Position numbers and translations under genes: made by a program
In this document: one piece after another, positions 1 through 62,750 of the stretch
Numbering within the stretch: the first letter of the stretch is position 1
Layout of the letters: the number at the start of each line of letters is the position of its first letter
DNA from: Rickettsiales bacterium
Lineage (GTDB): Bacteria > Pseudomonadota > Alphaproteobacteria > Rickettsiales > JABSSG01
Length of the DNA stretch: 64,000 bases
Assembly (NCBI GenBank): GCA_020049805.1
Contig: JAGVLN010000014.1
Location: forward strand, 7,921-71,920
Reading direction: 5' to 3'
Notes under the pieces: model-generated
The model's input: only the letters and a program-made list of their open reading frames with translations
What the model was told of the DNA's origin: nothing
The model's database searches: none

Positions 1-552
1 CTAGATAAAATCATCGGATTTATTCATGTAAAGGATGTATTATCAGAATTTTTCAAGCAAAAAAAATTTGATATAACCAAGATTATTAGAAAAATTTTAG
101 TTGTTTCCCCTTCAATGCAAGCTATAGATTTACTAGCTAAAATGCAATCTTCGAGGGTACATATCGCTATAGTTTTAGATGAGTATGGTGGTGTTGATGG
201 CCTAATAACCATTGAAAACTTGATTGAAGCAATTATCGGAGAAATTGAAGATGAGCATGACGGCGACGAAACACAGGATTATATAATCCTAAAAGACAGC
301 TCAATTGAAGCTAGTGCTCGTTTAAATATAGAAAAACTCGAGAAGTTATTCAATATTACTCTACAAAGAGAGGATGAAGAAAATGACTTTGATACAGTAG
401 GGGGTTTAGTTTTATCATTAATTAGTCATGTACCTATTGAAGGAGAAATTATTAACCATGACTCAGGTTTAGTATTTAAAATACTAGAAGCAGATCCTAG
501 AAGAATTAAAAGACTTCATATATCAAAAAAACCAGTAATTATTCAAGAATAA
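1..552 (+). CDS. corC: CBS-domain / CorC_HlyC transporter-associated protein (CorC/YbeX/TlyC family), C-terminal part; the 5' end lies outside the window
   Basis: Frame 1 is open from base 1 (LDKIIGFIHVKDVL...); the listed ORF 115..552 is only the Met-delimited part. The segment RVHIAIVLDEYGGVDGLITIENLIEAIIGEIEDEHD is the family-typical CBS-to-CorC_HlyC junction. The stop overlaps the lnt start (TAATG), matching the conserved ybeX-lnt order. Confidence 0.85.
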   Translation, partial: LDKIIGFIHVKDVLSEFFKQKKFDITKIIRKILVVSPSMQAIDLLAKMQSSRVHIAIVLDEYGGVDGLITIENLIEAIIGEIEDEHDGDETQDYIILKDSSIEASARLNIEKLEKLFNITLQREDEENDFDTVGGLVLSLISHVPIEGEIINHDSGLVFKILEADPRRIKRLHISKKPVIIQE

Positions 553-2087
553 TGTCTTCAATTAACGATATTACTATAGCTATAATTAGCTTAAAATCTA
601 GGTCGTGTTATTTATTAGCTTTTATAATGGGTTTATTAAGTTCTTTAGCATTTGCCCCATTATTCTTTTTCCCAATCTTGCTAATTAGTTTTTCTTATTT
701 CCTACTATTAATCCATTTAGCAAAAAGTAAAAAAATAGCATTTTTTACTGGCTGGTGGTTCGGTTTTGGTTTTTTTTTAGCTGGATTATATTGGATATCT
801 TTTGCACTATTAGTAGATATAAATAGTTTCTGGTGGTTAATACCATTTGCAATATTGTTAATACCAGCAATATTAGCTACTTATGTAGCTTTGGTTGCCT
901 TCTTAGCCAAATTACTAAGCAAAAATCAATATTCTCTATTAGTAAATTTTATTTGCCTTTGGGTAGTAGCTGAAATAATACGTGTCAATATTTTAACAGG
1001 ATTTCCTTGGTTATTAATTGGTTACAGCCTATGTTTTTCAGATTACACCATCCAATTAGCATCAGTATTAGGAATATATGGACTAAGCTTTGTTGGGTTG
1101 TTTATAAGCTGTACACCATTTTTACTATTACTCAGCAACAAAAAGAGAGATTTTATTTGGGTTATTTTAGCAATTTTAATATTTATAACTAATTATGGCT
1201 TTGGCTATATGAGACTTAAAGAATACCCAACTACTTATACTACTACTATGATTAGAGTTGTCCAAGCGAATATACCCCAAAACTTGAAATGGGATTATAA
1301 AGAAACAATGAATAATTTGCTTAAACACATAAATTTAAGCAAACAAGAGCATAATAAAATAGATTATGTAATTTGGCCAGAATCTGCTATTGCCTTTCCT
1401 TTAGCATTACAAGATCGATTAATGTTGGGAAATATTTTACCCAAAAACAGCCTTCTCTTATCTGGAGGAATTAGAGTGGATAACGCTAACCATCCCACTT
1501 CAGTATGGAATACCGTATTTGTGATAAATGCCCAAGGAGAAATTATGGATTTTTATGATAAAACGCATTTGGTACCATTTGGAGAATATATTCCGTTTAA
1601 AAAATTCATTCCCGTTACGAAAATAACACATGGAACCCTTGATTATTCGTCAGGTTTTGGACTTAAGCGGATTAAAGTCTCTAATCAATTACCATCTTTT
1701 ACCCCTCTTATATGCTACGAAGCTTATTTTCCTGAAAAGACTATAGCATCAGGCTCACAACCAGATTTTATTATAAATTTTACCAATGATGCATGGTATG
1801 GAAACACCTCTGGCCCTTATCAACATTTACATATGACTAGGCTTAGAGCTGTGGAACAAGGAATACCTATCATTCGTGCAGCAAATACCGGTATCTCAGC
1901 TATTATTGATTCCTATGGAAGAATATTAAGTGAATTACCTCTCAATAATAGTGGTGTAATTGACACATATCTTCCAGATATAGTGCCAAGAACCACACTT
2001 TATAACAAAAAAAATAATAAGTTAATTTTTTATGGAATAATAATTTTTTTTCTGATAAGTTGTAAATTCATTACTAAATTAACTTAG
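552..2087 (+). CDS. lnt: apolipoprotein N-acyltransferase
   Basis: 511 aa with an N-terminal multi-TM region followed by a nitrilase-type CN-hydrolase domain (VIWPESA..., ICYEAYFP, NDAWYG). It lies directly downstream of corC. Confidence 0.9.
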   Translation: MSSINDITIAIISLKSRSCYLLAFIMGLLSSLAFAPLFFFPILLISFSYFLLLIHLAKSKKIAFFTGWWFGFGFFLAGLYWISFALLVDINSFWWLIPFAILLIPAILATYVALVAFLAKLLSKNQYSLLVNFICLWVVAEIIRVNILTGFPWLLIGYSLCFSDYTIQLASVLGIYGLSFVGLFISCTPFLLLLSNKKRDFIWVILAILIFITNYGFGYMRLKEYPTTYTTTMIRVVQANIPQNLKWDYKETMNNLLKHINLSKQEHNKIDYVIWPESAIAFPLALQDRLMLGNILPKNSLLLSGGIRVDNANHPTSVWNTVFVINAQGEIMDFYDKTHLVPFGEYIPFKKFIPVTKITHGTLDYSSGFGLKRIKVSNQLPSFTPLICYEAYFPEKTIASGSQPDFIINFTNDAWYGNTSGPYQHLHMTRLRAVEQGIPIIRAANTGISAIIDSYGRILSELPLNNSGVIDTYLPDIVPRTTLYNKKNNKLIFYGIIIFFLISCKFITKLT

Positions 2088-2095
2088 TTCTACCG

Positions 2096-2500
2096 ATGAT
2101 TAACATTATGAAAGAATTTCTAACAGCAGAGGAAATAGACCATTATATAGGGCAAAAACTAAAATTTCGCCGGTTAATGATTGGTAAAACTCTAGACGAC
2201 GTAGGTAAACTCGTAGGCGTATCATTTCAACAAATTCAGAAATATGAACGCGGCCAGAACAGTATATCTAGTAGTCGTTTATTCTATCTAGCCAAAGCGT
2301 TAGACGTTGATACAAGCTACTTCTTTGAACAAATCAATAATACTAATAATTCCGTTTCTGATAGCAGTCAAACAGAATTTGATTCCATAGTAAATGTAAA
2401 TGATAGAGAACTAATTAGCATTATAAAATCTTATAGTATGATTAAAGATGCTAATATACGCAAAAAATTGACAGAATTAGTTAAAGCTCTGTCTGAATAA
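2096..2500 (+). CDS. XRE-family helix-turn-helix transcriptional regulator
   Basis: The segment IGQKLKFRRLMIGKTLDDVGKLVGVSFQQIQKYERGQNSIS is a canonical HTH_3/Cro-C1 motif. A second ATG at 2108 is an alternative start. Confidence 0.8.
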   Translation: MINIMKEFLTAEEIDHYIGQKLKFRRLMIGKTLDDVGKLVGVSFQQIQKYERGQNSISSSRLFYLAKALDVDTSYFFEQINNTNNSVSDSSQTEFDSIVNVNDRELISIIKSYSMIKDANIRKKLTELVKALSE

Positions 2501-2543
2501 ATCTTATAAAAACCCTTTTAGTAATTTGTTAATCTTTTTATGT

Positions 2544-2577
2544 AATAATTTATATAATTCTTATTGTATAAATTATT
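2544..2577. repeat. 11-bp perfect inverted repeat (AATAATTTATA-N12-TATAAATTATT) in the XRE/orphan spacer; candidate operator
   Basis: Read directly from the sequence: arms at 2544-2554 and 2567-2577 are exact reverse complements and lie 16 nt upstream of the 2593 start. Both arms are AT-only, so a chance match is possible in this genome. Confidence 0.3.
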
Positions 2578-2592
2578 GATAAAGGATTAATT

Positions 2593-3519
2593 ATGCCAGC
2601 TGATAAACCAACAAAAGTTTCAAAACAACCTTATAGTCACTTTGCCGAAATACATGGAGTAGAAAGTTATCCAGAAGGCAGCCTTCGTCGTTTTGGAGCC
2701 GAAGCTTTAACTTTTTTCCATTGGGTAGGTTATACAATAGGTTATGAGACTGGCAAGCTCGGAAAATATTTTAAAGACGAATGGAACAGAGAAAATCCTC
2801 CTTTAGGTATGTTTCATAAACCATTTGTATTAGCTAAATATACAGTCTTACTTGGCGCTGGTGCTTTAGCTTGTGTTCCTGGTTATTCAGCTATAGTAGG
2901 TTTAGCTGCGGGGGCAATTTCAGGTTTTAGTTCTGCAAATCGTAATGGATTTACTTTTTGGGGTTCAATTATTCCAACTTTATATGGTGCTGTGGTCGGT
3001 CTTAAAGTTGGTTTTATACCAGTAATTGGTCCTGGCCTTGCTTGTGGTATCGTTAGAGGTACCGTTGAAGGGGTACAGGATGCTACTATAAATTATGTAC
3101 CAGTAAAAGGATCTTTTTTTGAACAATTAGGCGCTATAGGAAAAAATATTAGTATGACTATGCAAACTCTTGCCAAAAGTTTAACAATAGGTATTTGTAG
3201 AGGAGCAGTGCCAATAGTAGGCTTAGCAGTAGTTTCAGCTAAATTAGATAGAGCTAGTGAAAAAAGAAGAAAGGGTGCTGCACCTTCTTCTATATCCCCA
3301 GAAGGGCATAGCGCGGAAACTGAAAGTCAGGAAAAAGGTAGAGGGAAAGCTACTGCTCAAGTTGATAAAGGCGCAGCAGTTAATCCATTTCCAGATGATA
3401 AAGCAACTATTGCTAGTCTCGCTGCAAGATCACCTCTTCCCCACACAATGGCTGCAGGAGGTACAACAGCTCAAGCACCTAGAGCAGCAACTTCTTCAAC
3501 GAGAGCAGCAGTTAAATGA
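2593..3519 (+). CDS. hypothetical glycine-zipper membrane protein with a disordered Ala/Ser/Thr/Pro/Lys-rich C-terminal tail (orphan)
   Basis: A 308-aa ORF in a stop-codon-rich AT genome is unlikely to be random. It has three Gly/Ala-rich hydrophobic blocks (YTVLLGAGALACVPGYSAIVGLAAGAISGF; FWGSIIPTLYGAVVGLKVGFIPVIGPGLACGIV; LTIGICRGAVPIVGLAVVSA). The last ~90 aa are low-complexity. I recognise no family. Confidence 0.6.
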   Translation: MPADKPTKVSKQPYSHFAEIHGVESYPEGSLRRFGAEALTFFHWVGYTIGYETGKLGKYFKDEWNRENPPLGMFHKPFVLAKYTVLLGAGALACVPGYSAIVGLAAGAISGFSSANRNGFTFWGSIIPTLYGAVVGLKVGFIPVIGPGLACGIVRGTVEGVQDATINYVPVKGSFFEQLGAIGKNISMTMQTLAKSLTIGICRGAVPIVGLAVVSAKLDRASEKRRKGAAPSSISPEGHSAETESQEKGRGKATAQVDKGAAVNPFPDDKATIASLAARSPLPHTMAAGGTTAQAPRAATSSTRAAVK

Positions 3520-3566
3520 TAAATTGATCTTGATAAATATGCTTAACTAGCTAATAATTCTTAATT

Positions 3567-5096
3567 ATGAATGCTAAGCATCTATCACCTCAGGTTGGTT
3601 TAAATCCAATCATTATTTTATCCTTTTTTTGGGGTTTTTGTTTCTTTTATTTAAATGGCCACGCGGTATTTAATGACTATGATACAGCTTGGCATATTGC
3701 TGCTGGAGATCTAATTCGTAAATTAGGTTATATCCCTAAAACTGATAGCTGGTCTTTTACTGCTGGCGAAACAACATGGTATAATATCTCTTGGCTTTGG
3801 GATATAATGCTTAGCTTAATAGTCCAATATTTAGGATTAAAAAGCTTATATTATTTTAATGCTTTATTATATGCCTTAATACTTAGTACTCTTGCTTATA
3901 ATTTAACTATAAGAAATTATTCTCTTAGTGCCATTGCCATTACTATTTTTATCACAACTTTTGTACTTGCTTATCATGCTTGTGCTAGACCCTATACTTA
4001 TAGCTTCCTAATGATGGTAGTATTTCATTCTTATCTTTATCAATATACCCTTAAAAAGAAGATTGTTTATTTAATGATATTACCATTACTTATGGTTAGC
4101 TGGGTTAATATACATGGTGGTTTTATCGGTGGTTTTATTTTAATTGGTGCATATGGTCTAGCCGCAATTATAAATAAAAATTGGAGAGACATGCGGTGGT
4201 TAATGTTTACTGGAATAGCCTGCATCTTGTGCGCTCTAATAAATCCTTATAGCATCAATATATATCATGCAATTACCAGCACTACACAAAGTAACTTTAC
4301 CAGCCATATTGATGAATGGCAAAAATTCAAATTTGGACAAGATTGGACAGCAACCCTTTATTTATTAGCCTTCTTTATGACCTTCAATATTAAGGAAAAA
4401 TCTATAAATATAGCAGATAAGGTTATAGCTCTATTTTGGTTACTTGCAGCTTTAATTAACATACGTAACATACCTATATTTGTATTATGTTCTGCGCCAT
4501 ATTTTGCTAGAAACTTAATTACCAGCGGCTTACTACGTCCATTACCAGATATTAATACTGCGAAATTAAGATTTTATTCAAAGCTTAGTGTTAGCACATT
4601 AGTAATCATCATGTTATTACCATCCGTAAGCGATTTAATTGTTAGAAAAGATATAGTAAATATACGACGTTTGCCATCTAATGCTGTAAAATTTATTCAA
4701 GATAATTACCCAAATACTAAGTTTCTAAATGAATATGGATTAGGGGCATATCTTATTAATCTAACTCAAGGAGCTTTACCAGTATTTGTTGACGGAAGAG
4801 CAGGAACAGCTTATTCTGAAAAGCTTTTAAGTGATTATTTATACTTAGCTTCAACCTTCCCTAGCTTAAACGATGATGTGCTAAATTATTATCAAATAGG
4901 TGGGGTCATTGCTTATAAATCGAAAAATCTAAATTTAATTTTTGCTAGTAAACCTGGCTGGAAACAAGTGTTTGTGGATAATAGCGTTACTGTCTATATA
5001 AAAGAAGAAGATGGTGGAGATGAGCGGAATCGAACCGCTGACAACCTGCTTGCAAAGCAGGCGCTCTACCAACTGAGCTACATCCCCATACAATAA
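3567..5096 (+). CDS. large polytopic inner-membrane protein with a C-terminal soluble domain; candidate GT-C-fold glycosyltransferase/polymerase, function unknown
   Basis: 509 aa with roughly 11-13 hydrophobic segments. An acidic D-x-D motif follows TM1 (FNDYDTAWHIAAG), and the C-terminal ~130 aa are non-hydrophobic. It sits next to a glycan-synthesis cluster. The last 28 codons are antisense to tRNA-Ala. Confidence 0.55.
   Translation: MNAKHLSPQVGLNPIIILSFFWGFCFFYLNGHAVFNDYDTAWHIAAGDLIRKLGYIPKTDSWSFTAGETTWYNISWLWDIMLSLIVQYLGLKSLYYFNALLYALILSTLAYNLTIRNYSLSAIAITIFITTFVLAYHACARPYTYSFLMMVVFHSYLYQYTLKKKIVYLMILPLLMVSWVNIHGGFIGGFILIGAYGLAAIINKNWRDMRWLMFTGIACILCALINPYSINIYHAITSTTQSNFTSHIDEWQKFKFGQDWTATLYLLAFFMTFNIKEKSINIADKVIALFWLLAALINIRNIPIFVLCSAPYFARNLITSGLLRPLPDINTAKLRFYSKLSVSTLVIIMLLPSVSDLIVRKDIVNIRRLPSNAVKFIQDNYPNTKFLNEYGLGAYLINLTQGALPVFVDGRAGTAYSEKLLSDYLYLASTFPSLNDDVLNYYQIGGVIAYKSKNLNLIFASKPGWKQVFVDNSVTVYIKEEDGGDERNRTADNLLAKQALYQLSYIPIQ
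5012..5087 (-). tRNA. tRNA-Ala (anticodon UGC), CCA encoded
   Basis: The reverse complement GGGGATGTAGCTCAGTTGGTAGAGCGCCTGCTTTGCAAGCAGGTTGTCAGCGGTTCGATTCCGCTCATCTCCACCA folds as a cloverleaf. It has the G3:U70 Ala identity pair, anticodon loop TTTGCAA and T-loop GGTTCGATTCC; length is 76 nt. Confidence 0.95.
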
Positions 5097-5215
5097 TTAA
5101 TTATCTACTATATTTAACAAAAAGTTACAAGTTAGTTTTTTAAATATTTTACTTTATTAAATACTATATTAAGATAGCAACATTAGCTAATTCGATTAAC
5201 TCAAACTAATAAATT

Positions 5216-24060: not shown

Positions 24061-25118
24061 ATTACATCTTCCTTGTAATTATTTAGACAGCTGCAGAACT
24101 CTCTAGGGCATTGCCTAGAGCCAACATTAGATATAATCATATCTTTTTTTGAGTTTTTGACAAGTGTCATCAACATTGAACTTAAGTTAGCAAGAGTCGC
24201 TATAAATAATTTATCCTTACCTAAAGTTTCAACCCTGTAATAACCTTTTATCCCCAATTCATCAGCTAATTTTTTATACATAATATCAAGTTCAAATAAC
24301 GTTTCCGAATGTTCTGAAACAAATGCTACCGGCACAACGATTACAGCAACTTCGTCTTTAGCCGCTTTTATAAGTTCACTTTCTGTAGTTGGCTCCAACC
24401 ATTCCATAGGCCCAACTTTGCTTTGATAACAAACTTGATATTCAAAATCTAAGCCCTTAAGCTCTTTTACTACTAATTTTACCACTTGTTCTATTTGCCA
24501 TTGGTATGGATCTCCTTTAGCAATTACAGATTTTGGTAACCCGTGAGCAGAAAATAATATCCTAATTTTTTTATGCCTATCAGTAATTTGGTTATATAGT
24601 GCTACTAATTTATTAACATGCGCCTTGATAAAATCATTTTCACTATAATAACAACATATTGACTTGATCGGAATATTACCTAAATATTTCTTTAATTCCT
24701 GCAAAGAAGATTTGGTAGTAGTAGTAGAAAATTGAGGGTATAAAGGAATAAAAAAAACTTCTTCTGCGCCAAAATCTTTTATTTTATCTACAGTCTCTTT
24801 GCTTAATGGGTGCCAATATCTCATAGCAACGAAAACTTTAAATTCTATTTTCTTTTGTTTAGAATTTAAGTATTTTTCTAACGCCTCGGCTTGTTCATTA
24901 GTTTCTTCTAATAATGGTGACTTATTTCCTATTGCTCGGTATATTTCTTTTGTTTTATTAGCTCTTAGTGAAGAAATTATTTTAGCGAGAATCCACCTAA
25001 AAGGATTTGGAATGTTGATAATATTTCTATCATAGAATAAATTAAATAAAAACTTTTCTACAGCAGATAAACTATCTGGCCCCCCTAAGTTAGCTAATAC
25101 AATGGCGATTTTCTTCAT
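24057..25118 (-). CDS. hemH: ferrochelatase
   Basis: LANLGGPDS, LYPQFSTTTT and SAHGLP motifs. Confidence 0.93.
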   Translation of the reverse strand: MKKIAIVLANLGGPDSLSAVEKFLFNLFYDRNIINIPNPFRWILAKIISSLRANKTKEIYRAIGNKSPLLEETNEQAEALEKYLNSKQKKIEFKVFVAMRYWHPLSKETVDKIKDFGAEEVFFIPLYPQFSTTTTKSSLQELKKYLGNIPIKSICCYYSENDFIKAHVNKLVALYNQITDRHKKIRILFSAHGLPKSVIAKGDPYQWQIEQVVKLVVKELKGLDFEYQVCYQSKVGPMEWLEPTTESELIKAAKDEVAVIVVPVAFVSEHSETLFELDIMYKKLADELGIKGYYRVETLGKDKLFIATLANLSSMLMTLVKNSKKDMIISNVGSRQCPREFCSCLNNYKEDVI

Positions 25119-26137
25119 TAATTTTTTCTTACAGTATCGATTAAAAATTTTACATTTTCAAGTGGTGTATTAGGTAAAACCCCATGCCCCAAATTGAAAA
25201 TAAAAGGTCTTTTAAAATTATTTTTTATGTTCAAAATTTCTTGATGTAAAATTTCTTGATCTTTAGACAATAAATAAATCGGATCTAGGTTACCTTGTAT
25301 AATTTTTGTTTTTTGTATTGTATTTACTACGTAATCTACCGGAACATTTTGATCTACACCTAGAATATCTATTCCTGTTTTTTGGGAATATTCTTCATAT
25401 AAAAATCCTGCTCCTCTAGGAAAACCAATAATCGGTGTATGAGGGAATTCGTTTTTTATTATCTTAACAACTTTAATAGTTGGTTCTATAACGCATTTTC
25501 TAAATTCTGTTTCACTTAATAGTCCTGCCCAAGAATCAAATAATTGAATTACATCTGCTCCTGCTCGTATTTGCATTATTAAATGTCTAGCTACTGCATC
25601 AACAAGTTTATCCATCAAAATTTTAAATTCTTCTGGATTATTAATAACAAATTCTCTAGCTATAGAAAAATTTTTACCACCTCTACCCTCTATCATATAA
25701 GCTGCTAACGTCCATGGTGCTCCAGCAAAACCAATTAATGTTTTATCAGAAGATAGACCTTTTTTTACTATTGTTAGTGCTTCATATACTGGCTCTAAAT
25801 TTTTTTCAATAGTTGTATCATTCAATTTATTAATATCACTCCTATCCTCTAGTTTTGTAAGAATTGGTCCCTTACCTTCATCAAAGACTAGTTCCATACC
25901 CAATGCTTGTGGAATTAATAAAATATCAGAAAAAATTATTGCAGCATCAAAATCAAATCTTTCTATAGGTTGTAAAGTTACTTTTGCTGCTAACTTAGAA
26001 TTATAACACATATCTAGAAAGGAATTAGTAGAACGGACTTCTCTATATTCTGGGAGATATCTACCAGCTTGTCTCATTAACCAAATAGGTAAATAATTAT
26101 TTGAATTAGATTTTATTACTTCTAGAAGTTTTTTCAT
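25118..26137 (-). CDS. hemE: uroporphyrinogen decarboxylase
   Basis: PIWLMRQAGRYLPEYRE and IIFSDILLIP motifs. Confidence 0.95.
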   Translation of the reverse strand: MKKLLEVIKSNSNNYLPIWLMRQAGRYLPEYREVRSTNSFLDMCYNSKLAAKVTLQPIERFDFDAAIIFSDILLIPQALGMELVFDEGKGPILTKLEDRSDINKLNDTTIEKNLEPVYEALTIVKKGLSSDKTLIGFAGAPWTLAAYMIEGRGGKNFSIAREFVINNPEEFKILMDKLVDAVARHLIMQIRAGADVIQLFDSWAGLLSETEFRKCVIEPTIKVVKIIKNEFPHTPIIGFPRGAGFLYEEYSQKTGIDILGVDQNVPVDYVVNTIQKTKIIQGNLDPIYLLSKDQEILHQEILNIKNNFKRPFIFNLGHGVLPNTPLENVKFLIDTVRKN

Positions 26138-26424
26138 TATAATAATTTAATTATATTCTTTAAGTTGTTTTAGTAGGAAAAGAATTTTTGTGGATAAATA
26201 TTTATCCACAAAAGTATCCACATATTTATGAAAAAAGATAATAGTATAAAAATCTAGTAAATCCAATATATTTAATAGGATCAAATTAAAGTTGACCACA
26301 TTATTCACAAAGTAAATTATTATGTTTTCAACATGTTAGTAGTTTATTATAAAAAAAGTGATAAACTTGTTAGTTAATAACATAACCATAATTATGCACA
26401 AGTTATCAACATATTATTCACATT
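26138..26424. other. candidate chromosomal replication origin (oriC) in the hemE/DUF299 spacer
   Basis: Eight DnaA-box-like 9-mers lie within 234 bp, two of them perfect and arranged as a 22-bp palindrome. They are flanked by nearly pure A/T stretches. The hemE-ori-RP001/CC0001 homologue-coaE-dnaQ synteny is known from Caulobacter and Rickettsia. Gene orientation diverges from this point. Confidence 0.75.
26189..26222. promoter_or_regulatory. DnaA-box triplet: TGTGGATAA (26189-26197, - orientation, perfect), TTATCCACA (26202-26210, perfect), GTATCCACA (26214-26222, 1 mismatch)
   Basis: Read directly from the sequence. TGTGGATAAATATTTATCCACA is a perfect 22-bp palindrome. Further boxes: TTGACCACA 26292-26300, TTATTCACA 26301-26309, TTATGCACA 26392-26400, TTATCAACA 26403-26411, TTATTCACA 26414-26422. 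Confidence 0.8.
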
Positions 26425-27255
26425 ATGAAAAAGGTAACCCTACATTTAATTTCTGATTCAACAGGAGAGACTTTATCTTCTATTGCAAAAGCTGCATTTG
26501 CTCAGTTCGATCAGATAGAACTCAAAGAATATATTTGGTCATTAATTAGAAGTCCGATTCAATTAAACAAAGTAATAAGTACTCTAAGAAAAAAGCCAGG
26601 TATAGTAATGTATACTTTAACTGATCAACAATTAATAGAAACTTTAAGAGAAGAATGTAGCGCTCTACAAATGCCATGTATGCCTGTATTAGATAATATA
26701 GTCTATAGCTTATCTCAATTTTTGAAAATCAAACCTAACCCAAAACCTGGAAAACAGCATGTTATAGATGAGGAATATTTTAGGAAAATAGAAGCAATGA
26801 ATTTTTCTATTACTCATGATGATGGTCAGCATATAGAAAATTTAGGAAATGCAGATATTATACTAGTGGGACCATCTCGTACTTCTAAATCTCCAACTTC
26901 TATGTATCTTGCTCATAGGGGATTTAAAACAGCTAATGTACCCTTTGTTAGTGGGTGTCCCTTACCCGAAATTTTATTTAGTGCTAAAAAACCTTTAATT
27001 GTTGGTATGTCAATTTCTCCTATAAGATTAGTTGAAATAAGAAAAAGTAGATTATTAAGTATGAGTGACCATAATAATACGGAATATATTGATCAAGAAA
27101 AAGTAACAAATGAAATGATGGAAGCTAAAAAAATTTTTACTGTTAATCATTGGCCTATTATAGATATAACCCGTAAATCTGTTGAAGAAATTTCAGCAAC
27201 GATAGTGCAATTATATCATGAAAGAAATAAAGGTTTAAAACGAGTTGTATGTTAA
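26425..27255 (+). CDS. DUF299 kinase/phosphorylase (pyruvate,phosphate dikinase / PEP synthase regulatory protein family; RP001/CC0001 homologue)
   Basis: N-terminal HLISDSTGET and P-loop ILVGPSRTSKSPTSMYLAHRGFKTANVP. Its position next to hemE is as in other alphaproteobacterial origins. Confidence 0.85.
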   Translation: MKKVTLHLISDSTGETLSSIAKAAFAQFDQIELKEYIWSLIRSPIQLNKVISTLRKKPGIVMYTLTDQQLIETLREECSALQMPCMPVLDNIVYSLSQFLKIKPNPKPGKQHVIDEEYFRKIEAMNFSITHDDGQHIENLGNADIILVGPSRTSKSPTSMYLAHRGFKTANVPFVSGCPLPEILFSAKKPLIVGMSISPIRLVEIRKSRLLSMSDHNNTEYIDQEKVTNEMMEAKKIFTVNHWPIIDITRKSVEEISATIVQLYHERNKGLKRVVC

Positions 27256-39661: not shown

Positions 39662-40869
39662 ATGATATTATTCGTTATTTTCTTAATACTGTATGCATAC
39701 CTTATTCACTATCTTGGCAAATTTACTATTGCCTTAAAATTCAAAAGAAACAAAACTCGACTAATTGCGCCACTCAAATATTATGGTTATTTTGTTTTAA
39801 CCTTAAGCTACACTATAGCTTTTATAATATTTTTTGGATTATTATTGCTGTACAAATTTAATTTATTAATTAGTACACTAGATCAATTATTGATTGCTAA
39901 CGTTATTAATTTTTTAATAGTCTCTTTATTTTTAATATATTGGGTCGATCCAAAATTGGATGTTAGAAATTACTTTGAACGTAATGTAAAGTTCATTATG
40001 TTATGTATTTCTAGTCTATCTTTCGTGATAACTATTCTTATTATAATCTCAATTTTATTTGAAACTTATAAATTCTTTAGTGTTGTTTCTTTAGTTGATT
40101 TTTTTACTAGTATTAACTGGAATCCACAAGATCACTTAGAAGATATTGATATAGGTAAAATTTTGGAATTATGCCTTTATTAGCAGGAACGTTTTTAATT
40201 ACAATTATTGCATTAATTGTTTCTACACCAATTGGTATATTTTCTGCCGTATTTCTTTCTGAGTATGTTAGTAATAAGCTGCGCTTTATATTAAAACCCA
40301 TAATAGAAATGTTGTCTGGTATACCGACTGTTGTATATGGGTACTTTGCTGCATTATATATGGGGCCATATATTAGGAGTGCTGGCGAAAGTTGGAATTT
40401 AGATGTTTCTTCCGAAAGCGCCCTAGCGGCAGGGGTAGTATTGGGAATAATGATCATACCTTATATAATCTCATTGGCAGATGACATGTTGAAATCTATT
40501 CCTGCTAACCTTAGGGATGCATCTTTAGCGTTGGGAGCTACAAAATTTGAAACTATTGCTAAAATTATTATACCTGCAGCAAAGTCAGGTTTGATAGGTG
40601 CTGTAATGTTAGCTTTTTCACGCGCTATAGGTGAAACAATGATTGTAACCATGGCCTCAGGACTAACAGCTAGATTAACAGCTAATCCTTTAAACTCTGT
40701 TACTACCGTTACTGCCCAAATAGTATCAATTCTAACAGGAGATCAGGAATTTAATAGCATAAAAACTCTAGCGGCATTTGCTTTAGCATTTACTTTATTC
40801 TGTTTAACTCTAATACTTAATGCTATAGCTCATAATGTAATGACAAAATATAAGAGTCAATTTAGATGA
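39662..40869 (+). pseudogene. pstC: phosphate ABC transporter permease PstC (long form), interrupted by a 1-nt frameshift at an A4T4 tract (40157-40164)
   Basis: ORF 39662..40183 carries the N-terminal TM region up to ...INWNPQDHLEDIDIGK and then runs into a stop. ORF 40171..40869 carries the rest (MPLLAGTF...EMLSGIPTVVYGYF). Adding one A restores ...IGKNFGIMPLLAGTF..., i.e. the conserved FG-x-x-P-L-x-x-GT junction. Confidence 0.7.
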
Positions 40870-49273: not shown

Positions 49274-52117
49274 TTAAGCTAACTTTTTCCCTTTATCTAA
49301 ATATGGTTTCAAATATTCACCCGTAACGCTTTCTTTTACCTTAACAATTTCTTCTGGAGTTCCGCAGGCAACAATTTTTCCGCCTTTATCCCCGCCACCA
49401 GGTCCAACATCTATAATATAATCGGCGGTCTTAATGACGTCCATATTATGCTCAATCACTACTACAGTATTGCCTAATTCAACTAACTTATGTAAAACTT
49501 TAAGCAACTTATTAATATCGTCGGAATGTAAGCCGGTAGTGGGTTCATCGAAAATATATAAAGTTTTTCCTGTTGAACGTCTTGCTAACTCTTTAGCAAG
49601 TTTAACTCGTTGAGCTTCTCCTCCAGAAAGTGTAGTAGCAGATTGACCAATTTTTATATATCCTAATCCCACATCCATTAAAGCATCCATCTTTTCCTTA
49701 ATGACAGGAACTTTATCAAAGAAAAGCAATGCATCTTCTACAGTCATATCTAATACATCTGCAATAGATTTATCTTTATATTTTATTTCTAAAGTTTCAC
49801 GATTATATCGCTTTCCTTTACATTCCTCACAAGTTACATATACATCTGGTAGGAAATGCATTTCAATTTTAATTACGCCATCACCTTGGCAGGTTTCACA
49901 ACGTCCTCCTTTGACATTAAAAGAAAAGCGCCCAACTTTATAACCTCTAGCTTTAGCTTCTGGTAGGTTAGTGAACCAATCACGGATCGGACTAAATACC
50001 CCAGTATAAGTAGCAGGGTTAGATCGCGGAGTTCTGCCTATAGGAGATTGATCGATATCAATAACTTTATCTAAATATTCTAAGCCAGTTATAGTATCAT
50101 ATTTACCAGGTACTACAGAGGTCTGTTCAAGCTTTTTTATTGCTGCTTTATATAAAGTATGAATAATAAGGGTAGATTTCCCCCCACCTGAAACTCCAGC
50201 TACGCAAGTAAATGTACCAAGAGGTATTTTAATTTTTACATTTTGGAGATTATTAGAGCAAGCACCAGTTAATTGAATATAGCGATTATTTTGACCAGTA
50301 CGTCTTTTATTTGGAATTGGTATAAATTTTACACCTTTTAAATACTGCCCAGTAATGCTGTTATTGCACTCCATTACTTCTTCTGGCGTACCACAAGCTA
50401 TTACTTCTCCTCCATGTACACCAGCCCCGGGCCCAATATCGATGAGATAATCAGCTGTCATCATTGTTTCTTCGTCATGCTCTACTACTATCACAGTGTT
50501 ACCAATATCGCGGAGGTTTTTTAGAGTAGCGATTAGTCTTTTATTATCTGATTGATGTAACCCTATAGATGGTTCATCTAAAACATATAACACGCCAGTT
50601 AGGCCTGAACCGATTTGAGAAGCTAATCTAATTCTTTGACTCTCACCACCAGATAAGGTGCCAGCATTGCGCGATAATGTTAGATAATCTAATCCAACGT
50701 TTTTTAAAAATCCTATCCTTTCTTTCAGTTCTTTAATAACTCGTTCGGCGATTTTATTCTGAGTCACATCTAATTTATTTGGCAATTCGTAAAACCACTC
50801 ATATATATCAGTGATAGTGAAGTGTGAAACTTCGCCTATATGTAATCCAGCTATCTTGATACATAAGGATTCTGGCTTTAATCTATAACCATTACAACTG
50901 CTACAATGACGAGTTGATTGGAATTTTTCTAAATCTTCTTTCGCCCAATAATTTTCAGCATCATGAAATTTTTTCTGCAAATCTGGAATAACACCTTCAA
51001 ATGGTTTTTTTACAGTTTGTGTTCTCATGCCATCATTGAAGGTCATTTCGATTTCTTCTCCGTTAGTACCGTATAAAATTAATTTTTGTATGTCCTCTGG
51101 CAATTTGTTAAAAGGTACATCAAGACTAAATTTATAATGTATACTTAGGCTACGCAAAATTTGGGTTTGATATCTTGATTTAATAACTTCCCAAGGGGCA
51201 ATAACGCCTTCATTAAGCGATAAATTAGTATTAGGAATCACTAGTCCTTCATTAAAATAATGTTCAATTCCTATTCCTTCGCATACAGGACATGCTCCAA
51301 AAGGACTATTAAACGAAAAAATTCGCGGTTCGATTTCATCAATCTGGAAACCAGAGATAGGGCAAGCGTATTTTTCAGAAAATGTCATTACTTCGGTAGA
51401 ATCAAGAATTTCTACATGGATGATGCCGTTACCATATTTGAGACCTATTTCAATACTGTCAGCTAATCTATTACTTAATTCATCATTAATTGCTAATCTA
51501 TCAACTACTAACTCAATTACATGTTTTTTATTTTTATCAATTGTAGGTAAATCGTCTAAATCATATAAAATACCGTCAATTTTTACCCTCTGAAAACCTT
51601 GTTTTTTTAATTGAATCAATTCTTTGCGATGCTCTCCTTTTTCTCCTTTAATAATAGGTGCGAGAATATAGATTTTAGTATCCTTAGGAAGTCCGTTAAT
51701 AGCATCAACCATTTGAGAAACAGTTTGGCTTTGAATAGGTTTACCAGTTGCTGGAGAGTAAGGTATGCCTATTCGGGCATATAATAATCTTAAATAATCA
51801 TAAATTTCTGTGATAGTTCCGACCGTAGATCGAGGATTTTTTGAGGTTGTTTTTTGGTCTATAGCAATAGCAGGTGATAATCCACTTATATACTCAACAT
51901 TTGGTTTGTTTTGTAGTTGTAAGAATTGTCTAGCATATGCAGAAAGACTCTCAACATATCTTCTTTGGCCCTCGGCATATATAGTATCAAACGCTAAGGA
52001 GGATTTCCCAGAGCCGCTCAATCCTGTAATTACCACTAACTTATTTTTGGGTATCTCAACGTTAATATCTTTAAGATTATGTTCTTTTGCGCCTTTAATT
52101 TCTATTTTATCATCCAT
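49274..52117 (-). CDS. uvrA: excinuclease ABC subunit A
   Basis: 947 aa. [34 protein letters not shown], two ABC modules and zinc-finger Cys clusters. Confidence 0.96.
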
Positions 52118-52216
52118 AATTCACATACTTGCTTTTTTTGTTTACATCTTTATTGCATATTATATTGTGTTATAGGTAATATAAAAGGTTTTTTTAATAA
52201 TATAAGCGAGGTTAAA

Positions 52217-52678
52217 ATGGCAGGAAGCTTAAATAAAGTGTTGCTTATTGGTAATGTGGGGAAAGATCCAGAAATTCGTACTACCCAAGATGGCAAGGAA
52301 ATAGCTAGTCTTGTGCTAGCTACTTCAGACACTTGGCGCGATAAATCTACGGGTGATAAACGTGAAAGAACCGAATGGCATCGTATAGTTATTTTTTCTG
52401 AAGGTTTAGTTAATGTAGTAAAAACATACGTTAAAAAAGGTGCTAAATTATTTATTGAGGGCAGCCTACAAACAAGAAAATGGAGCGATAATGCTGGTAC
52501 TGAACGTTATACAACCGAAATAGTTTTACAAGGTTATAATTGTAGCCTAACTATGTTAGATGCTCGACAAGGCAGTGGTTCAGAAGCAGGCGGGCATAGT
52601 GATAATGGTAAAAATAAAGAAAAAGATTCTAGTAGCGATTTCTTAATGGATGATCTGGATGATGAAATTCCTTTTTAA
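52217..52678 (+). CDS. ssb: single-stranded DNA-binding protein
   Basis: MAGSLNKVLLIGNVGKDPEIRTT, and the acidic tail DDLDDEIPF. RBS GAGG lies upstream of ATG 52217. The ORF-track extension from 52079 is antisense to uvrA and is rejected. Confidence 0.93.
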   Translation: MAGSLNKVLLIGNVGKDPEIRTTQDGKEIASLVLATSDTWRDKSTGDKRERTEWHRIVIFSEGLVNVVKTYVKKGAKLFIEGSLQTRKWSDNAGTERYTTEIVLQGYNCSLTMLDARQGSGSEAGGHSDNGKNKEKDSSSDFLMDDLDDEIPF

Positions 52679-56420: not shown

Positions 56421-57308
56421 ATGAAAAAAGTACAAAATACATTTTTGGTTTTGACTTTAATGATGTTTTTAAATTGTCTTAATATAAGAGCTGATGATAT
56501 TCCGCCAGTGTTACCCTCCCTTCCTGTACCAAGTCAAACTTTAGATAATATACCGACTACAAATCAAAAAGTTACTGTTAAAGCAATAGACGCGAATTCT
56601 CAGGATAGTCATACTGTAGCTGTAATTAATAAGCCTAATGGATCTGAGATAAAAGAACATAATACCAATATATTGTTATTAGAGTCTATTTTGTACTATT
56701 TAGGTGATATTGAAGATCCTATTACATATATTGGTCCACGGACGCTTAAGTTGCAATATTATGAGCCACAAATTTATATATTGATTGATTCTATAAAACA
56801 TCTTAATCCAGATAAACGTGGTGCAATTGCACGTTTTCTTAAAACAAATTTCAAAACAAAATATTTACCAAGTGAAATGTTTAACAAAGAAAACGCACAT
56901 TTGGCTAAACCATTATATATGACTGAAATAGTAAACTGGGCATTTAATGCGGTAGTGGCAGGCAATATTAATGTATTGAGGATATTGTTAGATAATTATG
57001 ATTTCTTACTTAATATCAAAAATGATGAAGGCTATGGCTTACTTTCTTATGCTATTTTACATCAGCGTAATGATATTATGTATATGTTAATTTATCATGG
57101 TGCCAATTTAAATGAAGAAAATAAATATATGGCTAAGCCTATTAATATAGCAGCTAGGACTAATAATTTTGAAGCTGTAAAAATACTAATTAGTAATGGT
57201 TGTGATGTGAGCCATCAAGATGTGTTCGGTAAAACCTCTCTTGATTATGCGCAAATGAATAATAATACCGAAATGTATGATTATTTATTAATGTTTAAGC
57301 GAGCATAG
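56421..57308 (+). CDS. ankyrin-repeat protein with an N-terminal signal peptide (candidate secreted effector)
   Basis: Three ANK-like repeats in the C-terminal half (GYGLLSYAILHQRNDIMYMLIYHGANLN; AKPINIAARTNNFEAVKILISNGCDVSHQD; GKTSLDYAQMNNNTEMYDYLL). N-terminus MKKVQNTFLVLTLMMFLNCLNIRA. Confidence 0.75.
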   Translation: MKKVQNTFLVLTLMMFLNCLNIRADDIPPVLPSLPVPSQTLDNIPTTNQKVTVKAIDANSQDSHTVAVINKPNGSEIKEHNTNILLLESILYYLGDIEDPITYIGPRTLKLQYYEPQIYILIDSIKHLNPDKRGAIARFLKTNFKTKYLPSEMFNKENAHLAKPLYMTEIVNWAFNAVVAGNINVLRILLDNYDFLLNIKNDEGYGLLSYAILHQRNDIMYMLIYHGANLNEENKYMAKPINIAARTNNFEAVKILISNGCDVSHQDVFGKTSLDYAQMNNNTEMYDYLLMFKRA

Positions 57309-61190: not shown

Positions 61191-62750
61191 CTATATGAGC
61201 GATTTTATTAGTTTAATAGTTTGTTCAATGCCATATAAAGCTATGAAAGAACCAAGACGTGGTCCTTGAGATTGGCCTAGCAAAATTTCATATATCGTCT
61301 GAAAAAATTCCTTTAAATCAGTATAATGAGCATTTTTTCCGATATGATATAGAGTATTCTGAATTTCTTGAGCATCGGCATTTTTTTCTAATTTTGTTAA
61401 AGCCTCTATTATCTGTTGTAATACTTTTATATCGTTGGCATTAGGCTGGCGGTAAACTTTTTTTGATTTAATAAAATCATTATAATAACAAATAGCATAA
61501 TCTGCTAATTGGTCTAAGAATGGGGCCGAGTCAGGGTTAGCGCTGGGAGCGTATTTAGTGATAAAGCCCCACAATACTGATTTATCGCTTGGATTACAAG
61601 CACATGCTAAATTAATTAATAATGAAAAAGTGAGACCAAAAAATTCTTGTTTTTCAGGTTTGCCATTATGTATATGCCAAATAGGATTAGATAATTGGGC
61701 AGTTGGGTCCTCTTCATGAAATTTTTGTAAGAAAGTAATATATTCATCTACGCTTTTAGGGATTACGTCAAAAAATAAACGCTTCGCCTTTTTTGGTGAT
61801 TGATACATATAAAGTGAAAGACTTTCAGTAGGTGCATATTTTAGCCACTCTTCGATAGAGATACCATTGCCTTTAGATTTAGAGATTTTCTTTCCCTCAT
61901 CATCCAAAAATAATTCGTAACATAATTGATGAGGCGGATTACCTCCTACAATTTTGCATATATTGCTGTATAAAATTGAATTAGCTAAATGATCCTTGCC
62001 GTACATTTCAAAATCTACATCTAGAGCTGCCCATCTTACACCAAAGTCTGGTTTCCACTGTAATTTACAATGGCCTCCTGTAACAGGTACAGTTACTTCT
62101 TTATTTTCATCGATATAAGTAATTGTTCCAGCTTTTTCATCCCTTTTAATAATTGGTACATATAAAACCTTACCTGTTTTAGGACAAATTGGTAAAAAGG
62201 GGCTGTAAGTTGCTTGTCTTTCTTCCCCAAGAGTAGGTAACATTAAATTCATTATAGCATCGTAATGTTTTAATGCTTTAAGAAGAAACTCATCAAGTAA
62301 GCCGTTTTTGTATAGGTATGTAGCGCTAAAAAATTCATATTTAAATCCAAAACGATCAAGAAAAGCAATTAAACGAGCATTCATATTATGCCCATAGCTT
62401 TGATGAGTGCCGAATGGGTCAGGTACATCAGTAAGAGGTTTACCTAAATGCTCTTTTAACATTTCAGGATTAGGTACATTATCCGGAAGTTTTCTTAATC
62501 CGTCCATGTCATCAGATATAACATACAGTTTGGTTGGTATATCCGATAATAAATTGAAGGCGTTTTGTACCATTACAGTTCTTACTACTTCGCCAAATGT
62601 ACCAATATGAGGCAAGCCGGATGGTCCATATCCAGTTTCGAATAATACATAACCTTTCTTAGGTGTAGTATTATTAACTCTAGCCAAAATACTTTTTGCC
62701 TCCTCAAATGGCCAAGCATTACTTTTTAAAGCGATCTCTTTAATATTCAT
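61191..62750 (-). CDS. lysS: lysyl-tRNA synthetase, class I
   Basis: HIGH-type motif PHIGTFGEV and KMSKS-type motif KISKSKGNG. 519 aa. N-terminal AWPFEEA is as in class I LysRS of alphaproteobacteria, spirochaetes and archaea. Confidence 0.9.

Follow-up and report, generated by a model that had tools for sequence, protein, structure and literature searches.

A predicted hemE/COG1806-type origin of replication in an uncultured Rickettsiales-like alphaproteobacterium

The hemE/COG1806 spacer and its DnaA boxes

The 64-kb stretch of contig JAGVLN010000014.1 analysed here, referred to throughout as the window, contains a 287-bp intergenic spacer between hemE and a COG1806/DUF299 gene that, judged from its sequence and its setting, is very probably the origin (oriC) from which an uncultured, AT-rich alphaproteobacterium of Rickettsiales-like type replicates its chromosome. 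The order at the locus is rho-hemJ-hemH-hemE, spacer, COG1806-coaE-dnaQ, with coaE and dnaQ called from matches to the CoaE and RNase_T families in the two genes after COG1806. These family matches bear out the gene order (hemE, DUF299, coaE, dnaQ) proposed in an earlier sequence-only reading of this DNA, which had placed an oriC in the spacer. Relatives are designated below by handles such as L001, and identities refer to a footprinting set of six lineages (the window, which is the identity reference, with L001, L002, L019, L017, and L012) whose COG1806 proteins are 70-80% identical to that of the window. The boundary genes, the spacer, and its DnaA boxes are as follows:

25118-26137, minus strand: hemE (uroporphyrinogen decarboxylase; PF01208, E=1.4e-114), the left boundary, which heads a hemE-hemH-hemJ run.

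26138-26424: predicted oriC spacer, hemE/COG1806 intergenic, 287 bp, 80.1% A+T, with the box cluster, the skew minimum nearby, and a sequence alignable in relatives.

26186-26213: perfect 28-bp palindrome, an inverted box pair with a 4-bp centre (inverted-repeat search).

26189-26197, minus strand: perfect DnaA box TTATCCACA, the sole well-matched box in this orientation (a candidate R1-type box, facing the hemE-side A/T block); identity 0.80.

26202-26210, plus strand: perfect DnaA box TTATCCACA, second of the triad; identity 0.96 across lineages.

26214-26222, plus strand: DnaA box GTATCCACA, third of the triad, 3 bp past the second; identity 0.78.

26292-26300, plus strand: doubtful box TTGACCACA, two mismatches, which may be a -35-like TTGACC; identity 0.33.

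26301-26309, plus strand: DnaA box TTATTCACA, one mismatch; identity 0.76; reads TTATCCACA in L001 and L019.

26325-26333, plus strand: weak DnaA box TTTTCAACA, two mismatches, which opens the central block; identity 0.78.

26392-26422, plus strand: three-box array of TTATGCACA (26392), TTATCAACA (26403), and TTATTCACA (26414) at 11-bp spacing; identities 0.73, 0.89, and 0.87.

26425-27255, plus strand: COG1806/DUF299 (Kinase-PPPase, PpsR-like; PF03618, E=2e-87), the right boundary, followed by coaE and dnaQ.

DnaA boxes are strongly concentrated in the spacer. Of the 29 boxes in the 64 kb that have no more than one mismatch, seven fall inside these 287 bp, by far the top 300-bp interval, while the other perfect boxes, at 4973 and 7674, are isolated; a denser cluster elsewhere, which the sequence-only reading had named as evidence that would speak against its proposal, does not exist inside the 64-kb window. 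The published consensus TTATNCACA occurs five times in the spacer against 0.05 expected, and none of 2000 composition-matched simulations reached five. Re-reading and a motif search found all the box coordinates and sequences reported earlier to be correct. One of those boxes, TTGACCACA at 26292, was nonetheless rejected as a functional box on account of its poor conservation in relatives (0.33), and a promoter scan that pairs its TTGACC with AATTAT (TTGACC-N17-AATTAT) does so at chance level. The three boxes of the right-hand array have one mismatch each, the last of them ending 2 nt before the COG1806 ATG (26425), and L012 carries four boxes with the same 11-bp period, a spacing that the earlier reading had not pointed out.

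The 22-bp palindrome TGTGGATAAATATTTATCCACA (26189-26210) described earlier is confirmed and extends to a perfect 28 bp at 26186-26213. Its perfect symmetry is unique to this genome; relatives retain the geometry with a degenerate left box, and the position of the (-) box at 26189-26197 is kept in all of them with one to three mismatches.

Strand composition, conservation, and the case for an origin

A sign change in plain GC skew could merely reflect the switch in gene orientation at the spacer, and the skew was therefore measured gene by gene at third codon positions (GC3 skew), in plus-strand coordinates, across the 64-kb window. To the left of the spacer, GC3 skew is negative in 22 of 22 genes, including nine plus-strand genes between 115 and 10889; to its right, 32 of 36 genes have a positive value, among them six of the eight that lie on the minus strand. 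Pooling the G3/C3 counts gives a skew of -0.222 for the left side and +0.192 for the right side (Fisher p = 2e-38), and the cumulative GC3-skew minimum falls at 26009, ~130 bp from the spacer. Plain cumulative GC skew also changes sign at the spacer and has its minimum in the same place. Such a turn from negative (left) to positive (right) is what an origin shows, as opposed to a terminus. Run over the 64 kb, the cumulative-skew check suggested with the original proposal places the minimum within ~130 bp of the spacer. The same GC3 flip is seen in the short flanks of relatives, including L015, in which all genes across the box cluster lie on one strand.

Comparison with relatives separates the boxes from the DNA around them. 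Seven of the eight boxes listed in the sequence-only reading have identities of 0.73-0.96, against 0.33-0.55 for the DNA between boxes. The first three boxes form a triad of fixed geometry, consisting of a (-) box, 4 bp, a (+) box, 3 bp, and a second (+) box (offsets x, x+13, and x+25), and these offsets recur in L012, L026, L028, L015, L029, and L035. The triad is found in lineages with only 54-58% COG1806 identity, namely L026 (the complete genome of Ac37b), L028, and L015, and with one degenerate box in L027; in L015, where other genes replace hemE, it still stands beside COG1806. A scan of a metagenome collection for the triad pattern returned 12 loci, all in origin-type neighbourhoods, as judged from the flanking genes of one representative per repeated sequence:

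L029 and L035: hemE/COG1806 spacers of more distant alphaproteobacteria.

L030, L032, and L034: upstream of dnaA.

L031, L033, and L037: adjoining yidC.

L036 and L038-L040: upstream of dnaN-recF.

Since all 12 loci lie in such neighbourhoods, the geometry seems to be characteristic of origins and not a product of chance.

Two further observations concern individual loci. In the Ac37b genome (L026; CP009217.2, 900422-907234), the hemE/COG1806 spacer has seven DnaA boxes and a GC3 flip of origin polarity. Three non-alphaproteobacterial loci (L031 4786-4819, L036 3601-3634, and L038 1353-1398) hold large head-to-head arrays, each built of three to four TGTGGATAA boxes separated by 3 bp and, on the other side of a 4-bp CTTT centre, three to four TTATCCACA boxes; these arrays adjoin yidC, dnaN, or dnaN-recF, and their 22-bp inverted-pair core has the design of the palindrome in the window.

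Other explanations of the locus have to be set against an origin. The box cluster might be an operator through which DnaA controls the divergent hemE and COG1806-coaE-dnaQ promoters, or a datA-like titration locus, with oriC elsewhere, for instance by dnaA. Both divergent operons must indeed be transcribed from within the spacer, the right-hand array overlaps the COG1806 leader up to 2 nt before the ATG, and dnaA lies outside the window (none was found among its open reading frames (ORFs) of at least 100 aa in the 64 kb). Yet a GC3 sign change of origin polarity within ~130 bp of the spacer, independent of gene strand and repeated in relatives including the co-directional L015, speaks against an operator; the location is also that of the experimentally defined Caulobacter origin (PMC1914354), and the triad is found elsewhere only at origin neighbourhoods, all of which makes this explanation improbable. 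The skew switch could alternatively mark the breakpoint of a recent large inversion or rearrangement, with the DnaA boxes as coincidence or relic, and the locus has in fact been rearranged in the wider group, with hemE apart from COG1806 in L014, L015, and also Wolbachia (PMC1914354). Against such a breakpoint, which we regard as highly improbable, the skew stays uniform for 26 kb or more to the left of the spacer and for 37 kb or more to its right, without a second breakpoint; synteny over the spacer is retained in lineages whose COG1806 identity is as low as 54%; selection acts on the boxes; and in L015, which has lost hemE, the triad and the skew flip remain together with COG1806.

The palindrome invites a different reading altogether: folded as a hairpin in RNA, it would be an intrinsic terminator or attenuator that precedes hemE on the minus strand, while as DNA it would form a cruciform, and the match to DnaA boxes would be secondary. 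It is a perfect 28-bp palindrome without a loop, and a terminator scan of the minus strand finds 12 pairs followed by ATTCTTTTCC, one match where 0.1 is expected. The stem contains only three G-C pairs, however, and relatives lose the symmetry, their left arms reading TGTGAATTA, TGTTAATTA, or TGTGGATCA, which breaks the stem and leaves the box spacing intact. What is conserved is each 9-mer together with the 4-bp and 3-bp spacing, as expected of protein binding sites, and there is very little chance that a hairpin or cruciform accounts for the locus. The terminator candidate was rejected on the non-conservation of its stem.

An oriC within the spacer is, by contrast, supported by the skew switch, the gene cluster, the conserved boxes, and the restriction of the triad to origin neighbourhoods, in agreement with the earlier proposal. 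By the features used to recognise hemE/COG1806 origins, the spacer matches this type in its location, DnaA boxes, skew, and A/T content, the last of which is a weak criterion here, and departs from it in lacking CtrA sites. A few observations weigh against this assignment. The spacer is richer in A+T than the window (80.1% against 68.3%), but the other intergenic regions of the window reach 65-83%, and neither A/T richness nor duplex stability is distinctive for it. The sole match to the integration host factor (IHF) pattern WATCAN5WTR, at 26404-26416, is at chance level (39% of simulations have one) and coincides in part with a DnaA box; relatives do not keep its position. The homologous spacer of Ac37b lies at ~0.90 Mb of a 1.85-Mb complete record, whose start has not been placed there. 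Lastly, a second or stronger box cluster may lie outside the 64 kb, for example near dnaA.

Proposed duplex opening, regulation, and the surrounding genes

The spacer contains three further elements that bear on where its strands might separate, of which the second and third had not been noticed in the earlier reading:

26138-26164: the least stable duplex segment of the spacer by nearest-neighbour dG, next to the hemE start codon; a candidate unwinding region.

26165-26176, plus strand: conserved TTGTTTTAGTAG, T-rich and ending in two 5'-TAG-3' (3'-GAT-5') triplets; a candidate single-strand DnaA contact resembling a 13-mer or a DnaA-trio.

26334-26365: conserved central block TGTTAGTAGTTTATTATAAAAAAAGTGATAAA, identity 0.84, against 0.39-0.42 in the flanking segments; with the weak box before it, the conserved block as a whole spans 26325-26365 (identity 0.78-0.84).

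The dG of the 25 bp at 26138-26162 is -21.9 kcal/mol, where the mean for the window is -30.1 (sd 2.9), and these 25 bp rank fifth in the 64 kb. The segment 26138-26164 is not conserved in sequence (identity 0.34) and varies in length; the A/T blocks proposed earlier as unwinding elements, 26138-26188 and 26223-26291, contain 86% and 84% A+T. TTGTTTTAGTAG, which adjoins the least stable 25 bp, has an identity of 0.97 over the six lineages and always lies 12 bp from the (-) box, with an identity of only 0.40 in the 12 bp between them. Its distance from the hemE ATG, in contrast, varies from 14 to 34 nt, so that the element keeps its place relative to the (-) box rather than to hemE.

This arrangement invites comparison with the basal unwinding system (BUS), a combination of DnaA boxes and DnaA-trios reportedly described by Richardson (2016/2019). 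The published search rule (Pelliciari 2021; PMC8287927) requires, for a box with no more than two mismatches, three or more 3'-NAN-5' triplets that lie 0-16 bp from it on the proper strand and side, and the published box-to-trio spacers peak at 10-13 bp. On the strand where the (-) box reads TGTGGATAA, TTGTTTTAGTAG lies 5' of the box, and its two terminal 3'-GAT-5' triplets equal the DnaA-trio consensus (PMC8287927, PMC8235120). Read by this rule, the perfect box at 26189-26197 is followed by a 3-bp spacer and five NAN triplets, for which we estimate a chance probability of ~0.2 in such A/T-rich DNA. All six lineages carry TAGTAG (3'-GAT GAT-5') unchanged at 12 bp from the box, and a run of at least three NAN triplets is kept only in the window, L017, and L019.

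From this geometry we infer, less firmly than we call the origin itself, that the (-) box is of the R1 type and that the duplex opens on the hemE side. DnaA would first fill the high-affinity triad at 26189-26222. The single (-) box, acting as R1 does in E. coli and facing the least stable A/T stretch by hemE, would then guide a DnaA oligomer onto the strand of TTGTTTTAGTAG 12 bp away, where the duplex would open. The right-hand boxes, all of the same orientation (26301, the weak box at 26325, and the 11-bp-phased array at 26392-26422), could support the remainder of the DnaA oligomer. The array at 26392-26422 in addition overlaps the 5' leader of COG1806-coaE-dnaQ; by virtue of this overlap, origin occupancy and expression of the operon are probably coupled, with DnaA on the array probably also affecting COG1806-coaE-dnaQ expression.

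Several points count against opening at the left element. Two canonical trios are conserved where the published rule asks for at least three, the box-to-trio spacer is A/T-rich and not G/C-rich, and the BUS rule is itself permissive in A/T-rich DNA. TTAGTAG is moreover a common heptamer, so that only its conserved, fixed position counts as evidence; with 26 copies in the window, it was discarded as a stand-alone motif. The central block is equally plausible as a site of opening or of regulation. On a less likely reading, the spacer is an origin whose duplex would open in its middle, at 26223-26291 or in the block 26325-26365, and TTGTTTTAGTAG would serve another role, for example as the hemE leader or as a promoter. 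The interval 26223-26291 is the second least stable part of the spacer at 84% A+T, and the central block is its longest highly conserved segment (0.84), contains TAGTAG and an A7 tract, and starts with a weak DnaA box that is a one-mismatch box in L026 and L028; the left module, for its part, conserves two canonical trios and no more. Opposed to a central opening are the boxes that flank the region, all of one orientation, the orientation that faces the DNA unwinding element (DUE) in E. coli being that of the (-) box at 26189 only; the poor conservation of 26223-26291 (identity 0.50, with a 13-bp indel); and the position of TTGTTTTAGTAG, which follows the box and not the hemE start codon. Opening on the hemE side is our preferred, if provisional, reading.

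As for the central block itself, the weak box at 26325 corresponds to TTATCAACA in both L026 and L028, whereas L012 has TTATTCACA there, and at positions aligned to the block L012 has the (-) DnaA boxes TGTGGATAG and TCTGGATAA. The block could comprise low-affinity DnaA sites, a promoter, or the site of another factor. The best promoter-like match is a -10 TATAAT at 26351-26346 on the minus strand, and this -10 is not well kept in relatives; a sigma-70 promoter scan gave five matches where 6.5 are expected, a chance frequency from which we make no promoter call.

The spacer holds no motif for control by CtrA or by methylation. Within 26138-26424 there are no copies of TTAA-N7-TTAA, none of the looser TTWW-N7-TTWW that allows one A-to-T change (1.6 expected by chance), and no GANTC, which, under both a strict and a loose CtrA rule, upholds the absence of CtrA and GANTC sites reported before. 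The simpler, DnaA-only control that the sequence-only reading drew from the missing motifs is a possibility only. Published predictions of Rickettsiales origins contain 0 to 7 CtrA sites, which are thus not obligatory (PMC1914354). From its motif content, we judge the spacer not to be a Caulobacter-type origin gated by CtrA and CcrM. In the Ac37b spacer, L026 2816-2830 is a perfect palindromic TTAA-N7-TTAA (TTAATAATTATTTAA), and a near-perfect copy stands at the corresponding position in L028, a tick endosymbiont (~2803-2818); the clade of the window has no conserved equivalent. CtrA-type sites may differ between Rickettsiales lineages.

We offer a broader proposal tentatively, as something that could be true but that we would not yet bet on. 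Rickettsiales-type origins may share a compact module, hitherto undescribed, in which the triad and its R1-like box place DnaA on a conserved GTTGTT(T/A)TAG strand ~12-16 bp away on the hemE side, independently of CtrA. The central block (26325-26365) would then be a separate regulatory element, lineage-specific or restricted to related Rickettsiales lineages, that acts as a low-affinity DnaA array or as the site of an unknown factor and couples firing to transcription of COG1806-coaE-dnaQ.

The closest COG1806 proteins (78-80% identity) come from environmental metagenome bins, two of them labelled 'Rickettsia', and the best named matches (54-57% identity) are Rickettsiales bacterium Ac37b, a Rickettsiaceae metagenome-assembled genome (MAG), and a tick endosymbiont; judged from these matches, the organism is not a Rickettsia in the strict sense and is instead an uncultured AT-rich Rickettsiales-like alphaproteobacterium. 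To the left of the spacer, glnA, lpdA, sucB, sucA, sucD, sucC, mdh, rho, hemJ (UPF0093), hemH, and hemE all lie on the minus strand; to the right, COG1806, coaE, and dnaQ on the plus strand are followed by secB on the minus strand, an FtsA-like gene, and an ABC-F gene. A search against Rfam found two tRNAs in the whole window and nothing within the spacer.

Some neighbouring features are recorded here in their own right. The left end of the window (115-2087), 25 kb from the spacer, holds the end of a CorC_HlyC (COG1253-type) gene and then lnt; in Wolbachia, Anaplasma, and Ehrlichia, COG1253 is the gene beside the predicted origin (PMC1914354). An HTH_3 gene (2096-2500) and an ORF without a Pfam match (2593-3519) precede a 509-aa plus-strand ORF (3567-5096), likewise without a Pfam match, that overlaps tRNA-Ala(UGC) at 5012-5087 on the minus strand; the lone perfect DnaA box at 4973-4981 (minus strand) lies beside this tRNA gene, and the region 2096-5215 could be an island adjoining it or reflect an over-long ORF call. 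Farther right, pstC is seemingly split or frameshifted (39662-40869): a 173-aa ORF (39662-40183) with no family match and an atypical negative GC3 skew overlaps the start of the ORF at 40171-40869, which matches only positions 64-295 of the 296-position PstC profile. The ssb ORF at 52079-52678 was probably called too long, with a family match from residue 47 and an upstream part that overlaps the divergent uvrA. An ankyrin-repeat protein, typical for host-associated Rickettsiales, is encoded at 56421-57308, and a class I lysyl-tRNA synthetase at 61191-62750.

Comparison with known origins

The type and location of this origin are already textbook knowledge for the group. What the assignment would add is a fixed origin for an uncultured Rickettsiales-like lineage known from environmental metagenomes, of use for orienting and checking MAG assemblies, for estimating growth rates from peak-to-trough ratios, and for comparing origin regulation among obligate and host-associated alphaproteobacteria. 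The triad of fixed geometry, which the metagenome scan found only at origin neighbourhoods across phyla, and the candidate single-strand DnaA contact may be modestly useful for work on origin architecture. Set beside the systems that have been described, the spacer compares as follows:

(i) Rickettsia. An oriC in this genus is said to have been predicted by Brassinga et al. (2001/2002), and a later prediction is that of Ioannidis et al. 2007 (PMC1914354), in which hemE and COG1806 are the boundary genes of Cori, the Caulobacter origin defined by experiment, and of the origins predicted for four Rickettsia species, whose spacers measure 383-396 bp and contain 82-83% A+T, against 67-71% in the genome. 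Our comparison rests on these published descriptions (hemE RP885 / COG1806 RP001). The window shares with Rickettsia the divergent boundary genes, several TTATNCACA boxes, a shift in GC skew at the locus, and a spacer more A/T-rich than the genome (80% against 68% here); it differs in length, at 287 bp as opposed to 383-396 bp, and in having no CtrA-type site where Rickettsia has two to seven predicted.

(ii) Caulobacter crescentus. Cori (hemE CC3763/CC0001) has the same flanking genes, with coaE and dnaQ downstream, and likewise places its DnaA boxes in a spacer that must also house the hemE promoter. The DnaA boxes of Cori are weak and non-consensus, while the spacer of the window has consensus boxes. 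Cori carries five CtrA sites, GANTC sites, and an IHF site overlapping the CtrA sites, whereas here there are neither CtrA nor GANTC sites. Unlike in Caulobacter, maf and aroE are missing from the downstream cluster, as the sequence-only reading had stated; aroE is retained in the more distant relative L027.

(iii) E. coli. The left end of oriC is laid out as the R 13-mer (...TTATTAG), 13 bp, and R1 TGTGGATAA; the sequence gives a 138/138 match, placed between the genes mnmG and mioC, in all but one of 5426 E. coli genomes (5425). In the window, likewise, a conserved T-rich element with TAG at its end lies 12-13 bp to the left of a TGTGGATAA box; the two read TTATTAG-N13-TGTGGATAA in E. coli and TTTTAGTAG-N12-TGTGGATAA in the window, and the likeness is geometric. 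The array of the window, with its 2-bp gaps (11-bp period), resembles the low-affinity arrays reportedly described in E. coli by Rozgaja et al. (2011). Unlike oriC of E. coli, which lies in an mnmG/mioC context, the spacer has no GATC sites, no 13-mer repeats, and one R1-oriented box.

(iv) The basal unwinding system. The spacer departs from this system in conserving two canonical trios, in the lack of a G/C-rich box-to-trio spacer, and in having a single proximal box rather than a tandem pair. It resembles the system in carrying 3'-NAN-5' triplets on the required strand and side of the box (TAA GAA AAG GAT GAT after a 3-bp spacer) and in the invariance of GAT GAT within the clade at 12 bp from the box, inside the published peak of 10-13 bp.

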